From sequence record MN445184: DNA of 64,000 nucleotides. One strand, given 5' to 3'. This stretch comes from Escherichia phage vB_EcoA_4HA11. Each line of letters begins with the position of its first letter. The stretch's first letter is position 1. Under the pieces are notes generated by a model, which saw only the letters and a list, made by a program, of their open reading frames with translations, was not told where the DNA came from and ran no database searches. Below, piece after piece: positions 42,636-45,598 of this stretch. The position numbers and the translations under genes are program-made.

Positions 42636-42704
42636 ATGGGAGCAGACTACTTCTGAGAAATCAGGAGCGTACATGAGAAGGTTCGAGTCCTTCCTCCAAT
42701 CCCA
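42636..42704 (+). ncRNA. tRNA-like element B (ends in encoded CCA)
   Basis: T-arm GAAGG-TTCGAGT-CCTTC, acceptor-like helix with one mismatch, internal CUGA-GAAA-UCAG tetraloop hairpin instead of an anticodon arm. Confidence 0.3.
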
Positions 42705-42706
42705 AC

Positions 42707-42832
42707 GCCGTTATATCTGACTGTCCAAAGGGGATAAGCTCCTGAGTAGGCAGAGGTGGGTTGCCTAAGTCAGATGGGATGTAAGGTCAGCGCTGGCCAA
42801 GCATTTGGGTTCGACTCCCTAAAACGGCTCCA
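42707..42832 (+). ncRNA. tRNA-like element C, expanded to 126 nt (ends in CCA)
   Basis: Starts 3 nt after B; GCCGTT/AACGGC closing helix, T-loop TTCGACT, discriminator plus CCA; internal 8-bp long-range helix 42715-42722/42768-42775. Confidence 0.3.
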
Positions 42833-42833
42833 T

Positions 42834-42960
42834 ATCTTTGAGGGCATTCCGCGTCAGACGCGAGACTGTATGGAGTTTCAGGAGAAAGGCAACTTAAATC
42901 CGAGGCAGTAATGCCCTATGAAATATCGGAGCCTGTTGTACACTGAGTGCCCTCAAAGAT
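42834..42960. repeat. 13-bp perfect inverted repeat (extends to about 16 bp with wobble) enclosing about 100 nt
   Basis: ATCTTTGAGGGCA at 42834-42846 and TGCCCTCAAAGAT at 42948-42960. Confidence 0.8.
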
Positions 42961-43110
42961 GTGTCTCACAGCGCATCAGTTTGCAGTTATGCAAGCTTCA
43001 ATAAGTTAAAACGCGCCTCGGGCGTTATGGGATAAAGCCTTAAACAGTGGAATCCCCAGGGCTAGCAATCCCTGTCAAAGAAGTAGCCGTGTGGGGGGTT
43101 TGCCCCCACA

Positions 43111-43246
43111 ACGCAAATCGAAGTTCTCTGGGTATATCTTTTAACCCTCAAGGTCTGTACACAGAAGTGGCCGTCCCATGAGTAAGTTAGGCGATATACA
43201 ACATGTTGGGTCGAACCTGTTAAGCCCAGAGAACTTCGATTTGCGT
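43111..43246. repeat. 22-bp perfect inverted repeat enclosing about 90 nt, preceded by a G/C-run hairpin at 43090-43110
   Basis: Arms 43111-43132 and 43225-43246 are exact reverse complements. Confidence 0.8.
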
Positions 43247-43625
43247 ACTTGAGAGAGCGTTGTATGAAATAGGGCAATGCCTTGCAGACCTCGACGCCTA
43301 CACATTCTAGACACTGGTGGGCGCTGGCGAAGATCTCAATATAAGCTGGTCATCAAGGGTAGCTCCCTGACCGGACGAACAATGAGAGGCCGAACTAAGG
43401 GGAAACCCGAGACAGGCGCAGTATTCTCGAGTTCGCAAAACAGTGATCATCTGACAAGTGTGATCACTCTTCGATAGAGACATTACATCGTGGCCATCAA
43501 CCACATCCTCGCTCTAGTGATGAGTGGTGTTATGTTTCTGTCGGCCAGCCTCGTTTGGTCCGAGCGATAGAGGACAAGTATTCGGTGTGACGAAGACATT
43601 GAATGCGAGTTGTAACATTTGGTTG

Positions 43626-43703
43626 CAACTTTGATGGCTCTGGATTTTATAAACCATGTCTATGGGTGACGCGGGATCTTTAGTACCAGAGCCATCAAAG
43701 TTG
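43626..43703. repeat. 18-bp perfect inverted repeat enclosing 42 nt
   Basis: CAACTTTGATGGCTCTGG at 43626-43643 and its exact reverse complement at 43686-43703. Confidence 0.8.
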
Positions 43704-43934
43704 TGTCCAACCCGATCTTGCAAGCCCGTATCCCTGTATGGTCAAGACTTGCAAGTGGAAAGCCCTGGAAAAATAAACGCCTGTGGTGAGGCTACGGTGC
43801 AAGCCAAAGACCCACAGAAGCGCGTTGCCGCGAGGCGCACAAACAGGCATGCATGAACTGATCATGCACAAACGGGATAAAGGGTTGAGAGACCTTGGTT
43901 GGTCACACAATAAATTATGGGGCGATAGTTTAAG

Positions 43935-43960
43935 GGATTCGATGCGCGCGCATCGAATCC
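43935..43960. repeat. 26-bp perfect palindrome GGATTCGATGCGC|GCGCATCGAATCC
   Basis: Read directly; about 67 nt upstream of tRNA-Met. Confidence 0.8.
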
Positions 43961-44026
43961 TCATAGAGAACAGCTGGAGGCCAATCCAGCAGGTGAGGTG
44001 AAAATCCTCAGACCCCGCCAAATTTT

Positions 44027-44102
44027 GGCCCCGTAGCTCAGTGGTTAGAGCAGTCGACTCATAATCGATTGGTCGCTGGTTCAAGTCCAGCCAGGGTCAC
44101 CA
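44027..44102 (+). tRNA. tRNA-Met or tRNA-Ile2 (anticodon CAU), CCA encoded
   Basis: Hand-folded cloverleaf: acceptor with one C-A mismatch, D-stem GCTC/GAGC, anticodon loop CTCATAA, T-arm GCTGG-TTCAAGT-CCAGC, discriminator A, CCA. Confidence 0.8.
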
Positions 44103-44139
44103 CTAAATAAACCAGTTGTTCAATAAACAATTGGTGAGT

Positions 44140-44340
44140 ATGATGAAAACGTTCGGTGAGTTTCTTACTGAGTGGGATGGCCTCGCTACTGACAACAAAG
44201 AGATTGTTGAGTTTGTTGAAAAGCGAGGCGATAAGTGGGTTGTCCTTGACCACACCAAGACTAAAGTTCTTGGGACACATGACACCAAAGCTGACGCGGA
44301 CGCCCAATTAAGGGCGATCGAAGCGAATAAACATAGTTGA
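44140..44340 (+). CDS. small hypothetical protein between tRNA genes
   Basis: 66-aa ORF from the first ATG (ORF-track start is TTG at 44116); GGTGAG SD; protein-like K/E-rich composition. Confidence 0.4.
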   Translation: MMKTFGEFLTEWDGLATDNKEIVEFVEKRGDKWVVLDHTKTKVLGTHDTKADADAQLRAIEANKHS

Positions 44341-44515
44341 AGGGTTCTATATTATGAAGAATATTTGGGTGGTGATTTCCAACAGAATTCGCGCTAGTTG
44401 GGAAGGTCGGATGGTGAGCATCAAGAACGGGTCTCATCCAAAAACTTACGATCGTTATGATCCTGCCCTGGGTCTTCATGCAAAATAAAGAATGTTTACG
44501 AAAGTAAGAATAAAT

Positions 44516-44591
44516 GACGATGTAGTTCAGTCGGTAGAACGGCGGTCTGTTAAACCGTATGTCGCAGGTTCAAGTCCTGCCATCGTCGCCA
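44516..44591 (+). tRNA. tRNA-Asn (anticodon GUU), CCA encoded
   Basis: Perfect 7-bp acceptor GACGATG/CATCGTC, D-stem GTTC/GAAC, anticodon loop CTGTTAA, T-arm GCAGG-TTCAAGT-CCTGC, discriminator G, CCA. Confidence 0.9.
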
Positions 44592-44598
44592 GGATTAT

Positions 44599-44726
44599 GT
44601 CGGGTCTTGCAGGATGGAATAGAGATTCTGTTTTGATGTCCAGGGGAGTCTAGTATTCAAAGTGAACATATGATAGCTTTGAAGAAACACAAACTAAAGA
44701 TTGGGGTTTGAATCCCCCGCCCGACG
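44599..44726 (+). ncRNA. tRNA-like element F (expanded, 128 nt)
   Basis: Begins 8 nt after tRNA-Asn; closing helix GTCGGGT/GCCCGAC, T-loop-like TTTGAAT flanked by GGGG/CCCC; no canonical cloverleaf. Confidence 0.2.
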
Positions 44727-45259
44727 ACAAACAATGGGTGTGAAACGAAAGCAAGTAAGCACGAAGTACGCGAACGACAAGTTCTCTCGAGCGACGTCCA
44801 ATAGCCGAACGGAATCCGAACCCGACGAAAGTAACGCCCACCAAATTCAGAGTGTAGAGGCTACAGTAGTGCGCACCTCACGGAAAGCTACACCGGACAC
44901 TCTGATACAAAATCTACCACCGCGTGGATTAGCTGAGGAAGGATGGCCGATGTCCTCAAGCGTGGCCCAGCACGTGGTGGTAGACCAAACACAGTAAGCG
45001 TTGCAGCCAGCTGTGTATAAAATGGGGTGACTCCACATCGGAAACGATGCCCCAACTTCCAGAAATGGTCGGGCACGAAGCCTGTAAAGTTCCAGGAGAT
45101 CGAACCAGAAGGCACTGGTGCCAGTTAACCAATCGGCGCTGATAAGCGCGGGGAGTTGGGCTACGGCAGATCAAATGCACAATCGGGTGTGAAGCCCGTC
45201 CTAATTTCGCGGGAGCCATAGGGGTTGGCCAGTAGCTGACTGCTCTCCCGCTCCAAATT

Positions 45260-45348
45260 GGAAGGTTGCCCGAGAGGTTTAAGGGACTCGACTGCTAATC
45301 GAGTGGGGCTTTTAGCCCCCGAAGGTTCGAATCCTTCACCTTCCGCCA
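45260..45348 (+). tRNA. tRNA-Ser (anticodon GCU), long variable arm, CCA encoded
   Basis: Acceptor GGAAGGT/ACCTTCC, anticodon stem-loop CTCGA-CTGCTAA-TCGAG, variable arm GGGGCTTTTAGCCCC, T-arm GAAGG-TTCGAAT-CCTTC, discriminator G, CCA. Confidence 0.9.
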
Positions 45349-45351
45349 AAT

Positions 45352-45437
45352 TGCTTCATAGCTCGAGTGGTAGAGCGCAGGAAAGTTTCGAGAGAACAAG
45401 GTGCCTGAGGTCACTGGTTCGAATCCAGTTGAAGCAA
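45352..45437 (+). ncRNA. tRNA-like element D: canonical acceptor, D-arm and T-arm but a 30-nt anticodon domain (pseudo-tRNA or variant)
   Basis: Starts 3 nt after tRNA-Ser; perfect 7-bp acceptor TGCTTCA/TGAAGCA, D-arm GCTC-GAGTGGTA-GAGC, T-arm ACTGG-TTCGAAT-CCAGT; anticodon region has a 4-bp stem closing a 22-nt loop; no CCA. Confidence 0.4.
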
Positions 45438-45447
45438 TCAGAATAAT

Positions 45448-45598
45448 GAGTGTGACTTCCTGAAGATGAAGAAGGTGTGCATGCCGACTTCATAACAATC
45501 TGGGGTTAAGGAAGTTAAGAAAGTCGCAGGATATGCAAGTGAAATGCAAATAGCTTTCAACGTCCTGACGATTTCGGGTTCGATTCCCGACGCACTCT
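45448..45598 (+). ncRNA. tRNA-like element E (expanded, about 150 nt)
   Basis: Closing helix GAGTGTG/CGCACTC with one G-U, T-arm TCGGG-TTCGATT-CCCGA; large internal insert; no CCA. Confidence 0.25.

Follow-up and report, generated by a model that had tools for sequence, protein, structure and literature searches.

The 64,000-nucleotide (nt) stretch of Escherichia phage vB_EcoA_4HA11 DNA analysed here (record MN445184, hereafter the window) carries six elements, A to F, that are shaped like transfer RNA (tRNA) genes, have non-canonical cores, and are packed among three canonical tRNA genes (Table 1). We conclude, with a probability of roughly 0.6, that A, B, C, D, E and F are genes for tRNA-shaped non-coding chassis RNAs, and that they are neither tRNAs nor debris. 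We regard them as working RNAs rather than broken tRNA genes because the same design, together with one identical insert, is found in unrelated phages. The evidence comprises the anatomy of the elements, their conservation and covariation, their behaviour as cassettes, modular exchange, their genomic packing, and the occurrence of one payload in three chassis types.

The initial annotation of this DNA, made from its letters alone, had listed three clean tRNAs and five further elements (B, C, F, D and E) that keep tRNA hallmarks around non-canonical cores, and both statements hold. ARAGORN, and Rfam at its gathering threshold, call exactly tRNA-Met, tRNA-Asn and tRNA-Ser and leave B, C, F, D and E uncalled. 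The window contains 11 copies of the T-loop motif GGTTYRANTCC, compared with 0.56 ± 0.77 in shuffles, and 9 of the 11 lie on the + strand between positions 42270 and 45587. With minor defects, each of the five has the 7-base-pair (bp) acceptor helix and GTTCRANYC-type T-arm of a canonical tRNA, as the initial annotation had stated in terms of an acceptor-like terminal helix and a GGTTCGAnTCC-type T-loop; none has the canonical anticodon arm, a 5-bp stem closing a 7-nt loop with U33, the anticodon and a purine at 37. The anticodon position is occupied by a 7-bp stem capped with GAAA in B, by a 4-bp stem around 22 nt in D, and by long arms in C, E and F. Minimum-free-energy folds contain the terminal helix of all five and the T hairpin of all except F, and when the sequence was scanned mechanically for T-arms with a complementary 7-mer behind them, B, D and E were recovered along with element A, which was absent from the initial list. 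Gaps of 2–10 nt separate the elements from the preceding tRNA or element; the initial spacing of D (3 nt past tRNA-Ser) was exact, while C begins 2 and not 3 nt past B, and F 7 and not 8 nt past tRNA-Asn.

Element E is a giant cloverleaf of 155 nt. Its start was placed correctly at the outset, and its end is better set at 45602 than at 45598, with the 7-bp acceptor GAGUGUG/CGCACUC followed by the tail UCCCA. The arm at the D position is long (CUUCCU/AGGAAG) and bears a variable hairpin with the conserved loop AAGGUGUGCAUGCC, the arm at the anticodon position is also long and bears GUGAAAUGCAAAUAGCUUUC, and the T-arm completes a four-way junction. Homologues are present in Kuttervirus, Agtrevirus (~80% identity) and Taipeivirus (~74%), and in an alignment of 10 distinct sequences from these three genera 98.6% of the cells of a 37-pair structure are paired and 11 pairs have changed on both sides. 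None of 500 column shuffles matched the real pairing and covariation, and sliding the 3′ partners by 1–3 columns lowered pairing to 41–48% with at most three both-side changes. The loops AAGGUGUGCAUGCC, AAUCNGG and GUGAAAUGCAAAUAGCUUUC are constant and the stems underneath them vary, a hallmark of functional RNA; E is a genuine structured RNA. A mini open reading frame (ORF) in E (AUG CCG ACU UCA UAA, preceded by AAGGUG) was considered and taken to be non-coding, because neither its frame nor its stop codon is conserved in Taipeivirus. Elsewhere in the window, positions 31053–31140 give a weak match (21 bits) to the E covariance model that spans the arm with the GUGUGNAUG and AUCUGG loops.

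The initial description of D, a proper acceptor, D-arm and T-arm with a 30-nt anticodon domain, was accurate. Run in relaxed mode, the Rfam tRNA model gives D 48.7 bits, 22 nt replacing the central 9 of the anticodon arm, and the 30-nt module (CAGG-AAA-GUUUC-GAGA-GAAC-AAGGUG-CCUG, 45378–45407) is set into a retained acceptor, D-stem and T-arm. An ordinary tRNA-Ile(GAT) occupies this locus in phage ECML-4. It is identical to D in acceptor, D-stem and T-arm, and its D-loop and anticodon arm have been exchanged in D for the module. D differs from the ECML-4 gene by a clean swap for a conserved module, not by random decay; the initially envisaged outcome in which homologues are ordinary tRNAs and the present copies show random decay is right about the homologue at this locus and wrong about the decay. 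The proposed comparison of inserts among the arrays of relatives gave covariation for E in three genera and conservation for the module of D.

The D module is not confined to close relatives. It is found in the N4-like phage pSb-1 and the T5-like phage EP_H11 at 91–93% identity (1–2 positions different), where its hosts are tRNA-like genes with another acceptor (GCCCACU/AGUGGGY) that score 54 and 52 bits, respectively, with the Rfam tRNA model; the EP_H11 element sits 5 nt past tRNA-Gly. SKML-39 (Agtrevirus) has the tRNA-Ile chassis with its CCA kept and a variant of the module (AGA, GGAA loop) that is the same as that of the lambdoid phage HK633, and in lambdoid phages (HK633 and the contig at locus L017) the module lies within a third chassis. 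This one payload thus occurs in three chassis types and four phage groups. Its two tetraloops, GAGA and GGAA, are both GNRA, and the 3′ internal-loop strand AAGGUG is invariant. Inspection by eye for K-turn, loop-E and tetraloop-receptor consensus sequences found no fit in the module. A possible mimicry of the 23S sarcin-ricin loop or of 16S nt 1499–1506 was also considered and was dropped on account of the shortness of the similarity and the variable tetraloop (GAGA vs GGAA). In pSb-1, four consecutive T-loop-bearing tRNA-like elements lie at ~840–1580 of locus L008, none of which ARAGORN calls. Part of a window block that we call G4 (45048–45119) is 80% identical to positions 3161–3232 of the EP_H11 locus (L009), ~80 nt downstream of the D-like element there.

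Since D scores as a tRNA with a single anticodon-loop insertion, it bears directly on the idea that the elements are intron-containing tRNA genes whose inserts are removed to yield working tRNAs, and tRNA genes of bacteria and phages are known to contain group I introns. With lengths of 22 to ~80 nt, the inserts fall far short of a group I or group II core (the group I P3–P9 core is typically >200 nt), and no Rfam intron family matched even at E ≤ 10; the idea was set aside on these two grounds. In addition, no contiguous deletion from D restores a U33-anticodon loop, an anticodon stem cannot be recognised in B, C, E or F, and bacteria lack the archaeal/eukaryal splicing endonuclease, so that we consider removable introns extremely unlikely. 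The initial suggestion of tRNAs with insertions is therefore apt for the anatomy of the elements and fails for their function, since no anticodon loop is kept and the inserts are too small for a self-splicing intron.

The remaining elements differ in plan and in distribution. B, found only in Kuttervirus, is a miniature: its acceptor is AUGGGAG/CUCCAAU with a sole mismatch (G·A at 3:70), it has no D-arm, the hairpin at its anticodon-arm position was described above, and its T-arm (GAAGG-UUCGAGU-CCUUC) is followed by C-CCA. C has a 6-bp acceptor, a long branched arm at the D position, a second arm at the anticodon position, and a T-arm with one mismatch followed by U-CCA; the initial statement that B and C end in CCA is thus correct for both. 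In Serratia phage IME250, which belongs to another genus, C is 98.4% identical, and the other blocks compared there are mostly ~74–93% identical. Across 20 related loci the mismatch rates, counted for B and C among the carriers of each, are 0.3% for B, 0.8% for C and 0.3% for tRNA-Ser, as against 5.8% for tRNA-Asn, 9.4% for tRNA-Met and 3–9% for most surrounding segments. A 213-nt segment that holds both elements (42607–42819) has no counterpart in phage Menlow.

F has a 7-bp acceptor in which a G·U pair has become A-U among homologues, a hairpin CAGGAU/AUUCUG, a second hairpin UUCAAAG-UGAACAUAUGAUAG-CUUUGAA (44660–44680), and no CCA. The motif of the second hairpin also occurs in E, and AAG-UGAA-N6-7-AUAG-CUUU describes the hairpin common to the two. 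The T-arm of F (UGGGG-UUUGAAU-CCCCC, with four T-stem pairs and the loop UUUGAAU) is assigned from its sequence and one compensated pair (G-C to A-U), and not from the minimum-free-energy fold. Dickeya phage LIMEstone1 has a copy of F with 89.8% identity, placed directly after tRNA-Met and not after tRNA-Asn, and F is absent from both Menlow and Gloob. A has the acceptor GGUGAGG/CCUCGCC, the T-arm GUGUGG-UUCGAUU-CCGCAC, a non-canonical core of 34 nt and no encoded CCA; it behaves as a clean 75-nt presence/absence cassette that is not in Menlow, is 94.7% identical in Agtrevirus, and is labelled “tRNA-Ala” in the SeKF_64 record. B, C, F and A all come and go between genera as clean cassettes, and the data for them argue against neutral decay.

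Exchange is also seen in lambdoid phages and related siphophages. A tRNA-like body of the form UGUGGUG-AA-UGCGCAGGCUGAUGCGN-[payload]-GCCGGAGAUCAGCACCGGC-CACCACA was found in HK633 (L030, 1453–1548) and in 22 more distinct copies among viral-contig loci L036–L148, and it carries 17 distinct payloads of 33–103 nt that are mostly unrelated to one another, the D module being one of them. Representatives fold as cloverleaves, and the D-loop (GCUGAU), read from the sequence, is complementary to the T-like loop (AUCAGC), a pairing that would form a tRNA elbow. Chassis and payload are separable, because one lambdoid chassis carries 17 payloads. A constant chassis with an exchangeable anticodon domain, and conversely one payload in three chassis types, is the strongest argument that the tRNA-like part would be a carrier and the insert its cargo. 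When the other lambdoid payloads were compared with the window, only the D module was common to both. At L017 a sub-threshold match to the type III hammerhead ribozyme (30.5 bits, E 0.005) lies on the − strand at 4307–4368, a short way upstream of this lambdoid contig’s late terminator and D-type tRNA-like element.

Several observations weigh against the reading of A to F as working chassis RNAs. The z-scores of single-sequence minimum free energies lie at a modest −0.8 to −2.8; covariation cannot test the folds of B and C, which hardly vary, and the low divergence of these two could reflect recent horizontal spread instead of constraint; the encoded CCA is lost in D (tail A-UCA) and is not found in F or A; and the elements are gained and lost between genera (Menlow has E and none of the other five), so that no single element is essential to the family. 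Some true decay does occur in the array: a remnant at 45209–45255, also missing from the initial list, keeps the acceptor strands GCGGGAG/CUCCCGC and U-CCA and has lost ~37 nt, among them the T-arm, of a gene that phage CBA120 keeps intact as an 84-nt “tRNA-Ile(gat)” (L002, 5121–5204). In phage S117 the same hotspot, upstream of tRNA-Ser, holds tRNA-Tyr and a ~139-nt expanded tRNA-like element ending in ACCA (L004, ~4630–4768). The array is therefore in constant flux.

The lost CCA of D, the gain and loss between genera and the remnant are what one would expect if the elements were decaying or recombinant tRNA pseudogenes, that is, functionless leftovers of a larger array scrambled by recombination and homing-endonuclease traffic. 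HNH endonuclease genes are indeed inserted in the array region of CBA120 and its relatives, D is labelled a pseudo “tRNA-OTHER” in the record of Salmonella phage SFP10, and the D locus of ECML-4 holds an ordinary tRNA. Pseudogenes do not account for the 37 pairs and 11 compensatory changes of E in three genera, for the presence of the same 30-nt insert in three unrelated chassis, for the slower divergence of B and C than of tRNA-Met and tRNA-Asn, or for the intact or near-intact 6–7-bp acceptor helix and T-arm of every element, and we judge this explanation quite unlikely. The interpretation first offered for these elements was therefore right in part. Of its three possibilities, tRNA-derived stable RNAs give the best fit, given the covariation of E, the D module in unrelated phages, and a divergence of B and C as slow as that of tRNA-Ser; decaying pseudogenes can be rejected for D and E and are unlikely for B, C and F, and real decay is seen nearby, at the remnant.

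If A to F are chassis RNAs, they might work as follows. The elements keep what the tRNA-maturation machinery recognises, an acceptor helix stacked on a T-arm (and in D a D-arm also), and the anticodon domain, together with the D-arm position in C, E and F, is swapped for another folded RNA. The array would be co-transcribed with tRNA-Met, tRNA-Asn and tRNA-Ser up to the terminator that closes it, and RNase P and the 3′ trimming and CCA enzymes would excise each unit, as we infer because the units look like tRNA. The tRNA-like body would shield the unit from decay, and the inserted domain would be the working part that binds a host component. The most likely targets would be components of translation or ribosome rescue, or else an enzyme (nuclease or transferase) directed against tRNAs, which would make tRNA-directed immunity the arena; these are proposed because of the tRNA mimicry and because of a gene resembling transfer-messenger RNA (tmRNA) next door (below).

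The tight head-to-tail packing against tRNAs and other structured RNAs is also compatible with pure processing punctuation, in which the folds would only direct RNase P and RNase E cuts that free the tRNAs or neighbouring RNAs, and the excised pieces would be by-products. Such punctuation is an established principle in mitochondria and in MALAT1/mascRNA. It needs an acceptor helix and a T-arm only, and leaves unexplained the conserved loops and covarying long arms of E, the movement of the D module between chassis, and the motif common to E and F; punctuation as the whole purpose of the elements is in our estimation decidedly unlikely.

The tmRNA-like neighbour, which we call X, is separated from the downstream B by 31 nt and lacks a tRNA-like domain (TLD). 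It has a sigma70-like promoter (42309–42336), a 13-bp hairpin (42356–42368 paired with 42408–42420), and, after an A-rich leader, a tag frame of 10 codons without a start codon (42481–42513; GCU AAU GAU AAC ACG UUC CUG GCA GUA GCU UAA), which would encode ANDNTFLAVA. The tag of E. coli tmRNA is ANDENYALAA. The stop codon of X is within the loop of a helix-5-like hairpin, two pseudoknot-type hairpins whose pairs covary come next, and a terminal hairpin lies at 42573–42603. All 101 distinct copies of X have a tag of 10 codons (ANEEMYLAVA, ANDDVVLMAA, ANDEQFLAVA and others). Codon differences in the tag frame are 414 synonymous and 1033 non-synonymous, compared with 25:1577 and 179:1392 in the other two frames, a pattern of substitution that shows selection at the level of a predicted peptide. 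Matches to X come from 755 phage records, spread over many families, and from 144 of the 5426 complete E. coli genomes; carriers include HK620 and HK633 (downstream of PR′), the FelixO1 tRNA region, P1, N4-like phages, Klebsiella siphophages and one Acinetobacter phage, and none of the listed records has an annotation beneath the match. ARAGORN makes no tmRNA call at X in these loci, and its one call elsewhere in one flank is spurious.

The Rfam permuted-tmRNA models align the tag region of X below threshold (20–27 bits), together with one hairpin, and leave just 18–40 nt at the place of the TLD. X was nevertheless considered as a circularly permuted two-piece tmRNA, with GAGUCCU-G-GCCA (42364–42375) as a candidate 3′ acceptor strand, and this was rejected: the 18–40 nt leave little place for a TLD, the pairing of the segment is part of the plain 13-bp hairpin, its CCA is absent in Menlow, and it is not conserved across other phage families. 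In Erwinia phage Bue1 (L021) a T-arm directly follows the copy of X (6195–6230), and at 6510–6590 there is a tRNA-like element whose terminal helix has 12 bp and whose T-loop, GCGGGUUCAACUCCUGC, is of the tmRNA type.

The position of X, its lack of a TLD and the peptide-level selection on its tag raise the possibility that the elements, B especially, are mimics or partners of the tmRNA TLD that bind SmpB, EF-Tu or alanyl-tRNA synthetase and either block trans-translation or split the tagging task with X. B does resemble a minimal TLD, with an acceptor whose sole mismatch is at 3:70, an unpaired linker, a tetraloop-capped helix, a T-arm and CCA. The E loop AAGGUGUGCAUGCCGA resembles the stretch AAGGUGCAUGCCGA of E. 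coli tmRNA. There is also a precedent in the “TLD only” gene of mycobacteriophage DS6A, which encodes little beyond a tmRNA TLD, a molecule that inhibits tmRNA and has been proposed to titrate SmpB (PMC4131195). Against this, none of the elements has the alanine-identity pair G3·U70 (position 3:70 is G·A in B, C-G in C, F and D, and G-C in E), and B, C, F, D and E do not show the tmRNA combination of a TLD with that pair, discriminator A and CCA. No conserved start-less tag frame followed by pseudoknots is found in B to F, and the Rfam tmRNA models match nothing in them beyond the T-loop. No tRNA-like element consistently co-occurs with X (Menlow has X and, of the six elements, only E; L017 has a D-type element without X), and RNAduplex predicts base-pairing of X with A to F at energies no better than those of shuffles. 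Mimicry of, or partnership with, the tmRNA TLD as the general explanation of the elements is thus unlikely.

A wider reading that keeps the chassis RNAs and adds X is that enterobacterial phages of at least four unrelated groups (Ackermannviridae, T5-like, N4-like and lambdoid) draw on a common pool of payloads in interchangeable chassis, with a TLD-less tag RNA in the same islands; in its boldest form, a chassis RNA would supply the TLD in trans, giving a split trans-translation system that would tag host proteins or the products of stalled ribosomes with a phage degron (AANDNTFLAVA and variants). We offer this tentatively, as possible and rather doubtful. In 37 of the 101 copies of X a junction motif leads into a UGUGGU-type tRNA-like chassis downstream of the tag, mostly at ~160–240 nt.

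Among known systems, the closest natural analogues of the window elements are RNAC (species 1, 139 nt) and RNAD (species 2, 119 nt) of phage T4, whose function is still unknown (PMC3014915, PMC9697503). Both are encoded where a phage tRNA cluster ends, immediately behind a tRNA, much as D and E follow tRNA-Ser and precede the terminator; the window elements lie within a tRNA cluster or close it, share its strand, and abut tRNAs. RNAC is closed by a terminal helix and has two long internal arms besides its GGUUCGAAUCC T-arm. A covariance model built on E (R1) found only a 9-bit T-loop match in the RNAC/RNAD locus, on which basis E was rejected as a homologue, and the likeness is one of layout and not of descent. 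T4 has two such RNAs, whereas the window has at least six along with several RNAs without a T-loop, and the host range and phage family differ.

The tmRNA TLD shares with the elements an acceptor helix and T-arm, no anticodon, and a helix at the anticodon position, but the elements have neither G3·U70 nor a tmRNA-type D-loop sequence, and C, E and F each form a four-way junction from which two long arms extend. Canonical tRNA (RF00005) shares the acceptor helix, the GTTCRANYC T-loop and the placement in an array, and with D also the D-arm, but no element has a 7-nt anticodon loop. An assignment to the YrlA/Y RNAs is not supported either: there is no Rfam match, and the acceptor forms the terminal helix here, the opposite of the YrlA topology of a Ro-binding terminal stem with a distal tRNA-like module. 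In the tRNA-miRNA units of MHV68 and in MALAT1 mascRNA, a tRNA-like fold recruits tRNA-processing enzymes to free an attached RNA; there the cargo lies beside the tRNA-like unit, whereas here it is embedded within it, and the enzymes and hosts differ. The synthetic “tRNA scaffold” for recombinant RNA in E. coli (Ponchon and Dardel; cf. PMC3753655) is built on the same principle, in that a structured RNA replaces the anticodon arm so that the cell processes and stabilises it, and D and the lambdoid chassis with its 17 payloads are natural look-alikes. The scaffold is an engineering method, whereas for the natural elements a gain in stability or processing would be expected by comparison with it.

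On the criteria applied, the elements fall outside the tRNA, tmRNA, intron and Y-RNA families, and they extend the poorly understood RNAs of phage tRNA clusters, to which they bring a plainly modular logic and, unexpectedly, a tmRNA-like companion. Rfam 15 has no family that matches the tRNA-shaped elements. Literature searches on phage tRNA-like, decoy or anti-defence RNAs and phage tmRNA-like genes, and on Kuttervirus and Ackermannviridae transcriptomes, found nothing on them. RNAC and RNAD were described as having unknown function in both 2010 and 2022, and their class has almost no comparative data; the many members found here, with chassis/payload boundaries, a hopping payload and presence/absence variants, make the purpose of tRNA-cluster RNAs testable. 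If the chassis idea holds, phages have found the tRNA-scaffold trick that biotechnology uses, and the payloads would be a library of natural RNA binders or inhibitors, which could be aimed at translation, ribosome rescue or tRNA-directed immunity, an active field. In hundreds of phage genomes such genes have no annotation or bear the label “tRNA-OTHER”, “tRNA-Ala” or “tRNA-Leu”. X may merit separate study.

Table 1. Features of the tRNA and structured-RNA array (positions in the window).
Feature	Position	Strand	Basis
A, sixth tRNA-like element	42226..42292	+	fold, T-loop motif
X, tmRNA-like RNA without a TLD	~42343..42604	+	tag frame, folds, profile matches
B, 69-nt mini tRNA-like RNA	42636..42704	+	fold, T-arm scan
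C, 126-nt expanded cloverleaf	42707..42832	+	fold
tRNA-Met(CAT), canonical	44027..44102	+	ARAGORN, Rfam gathering threshold
tRNA-Asn(GTT), canonical	44516..44591	+	ARAGORN, Rfam gathering threshold
F, 128-nt expanded tRNA-like RNA	44599..44726	+	fold, sequence, compensatory pair
G2, structured RNA without a T-loop, helix CAGAGUGU/ACACUCUG	44845..44908	+	covariation with T5-like copy
G3, structured RNA, 14-bp terminal helix	44911..44986	+	helix re-written yet paired
Deletion remnant of tRNA-like gene	45209..45255	+	intact 84-nt copy in CBA120
tRNA-Ser(GCT), canonical	45260..45348	+	ARAGORN, Rfam gathering threshold
D, tRNA-Ile-type chassis with 30-nt module	45352..45437	+	Rfam tRNA model, locus comparison
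E, 155-nt giant cloverleaf	45448..45602	+	fold, covariation
Intrinsic terminator, strong, closing the array 3′ of E	45662..45684	+	terminator scan

The elements are part of a larger conserved island. The window belongs to a Kuttervirus (Ackermannviridae): the region 41900–45750 is 99.8% identical in SFP10, a member of that genus, and 96–99% identical in CBA120, Det7, Vi01 and ~100 further records, and a counterpart gap of 2–4 kb, mostly free of ORFs, lies at the same place in every Ackermannviridae genus examined. Conserved ORFs of 190 amino acids (40990–41562) and 77 amino acids (45732–45965), both on the + strand, flank the array. Within it there are only two small conserved ORFs (44143–44340 and 44354–44488), which were dropped as a functional clue since their PHROGs have no assigned function. 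No strong-stem terminator-like site was found on the + strand inside the array, where the scan gave one weak match at 43509–43527. Two long hairpins (43105–43255 and 43600–43725, with perfect stems of 22 and 18 bp) are ~70–74% conserved in Taipeivirus, and their Rfam matches, to microRNA precursors only, are spurious.

Taken as a whole, these 3.9 kb form an array of structured, conserved RNAs. Between F and tRNA-Ser, most blocks show 80–98% identity across genera, as compared with 75–88% for the flanking coding DNA. G2 is 98.6% identical in Taipeivirus, and it has an unannotated homologue in the T5-like phage Seafire (L034, 1501–1562), immediately after tRNA-Lys, in which the helix is kept despite changes on both strands. 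G3 has a core, GAUUAGCUGNGGAAGG..GGCCGAUGUCCNCAAGCGUGGCCCAG, of roughly 45 nt that is nearly invariant, with few variable positions, and the sequence of its helix is almost wholly different in Taipeivirus and in the N4-like phage PhAPEC5 and is still paired. In PhAPEC5, G3 directly adjoins that phage’s copy of X.

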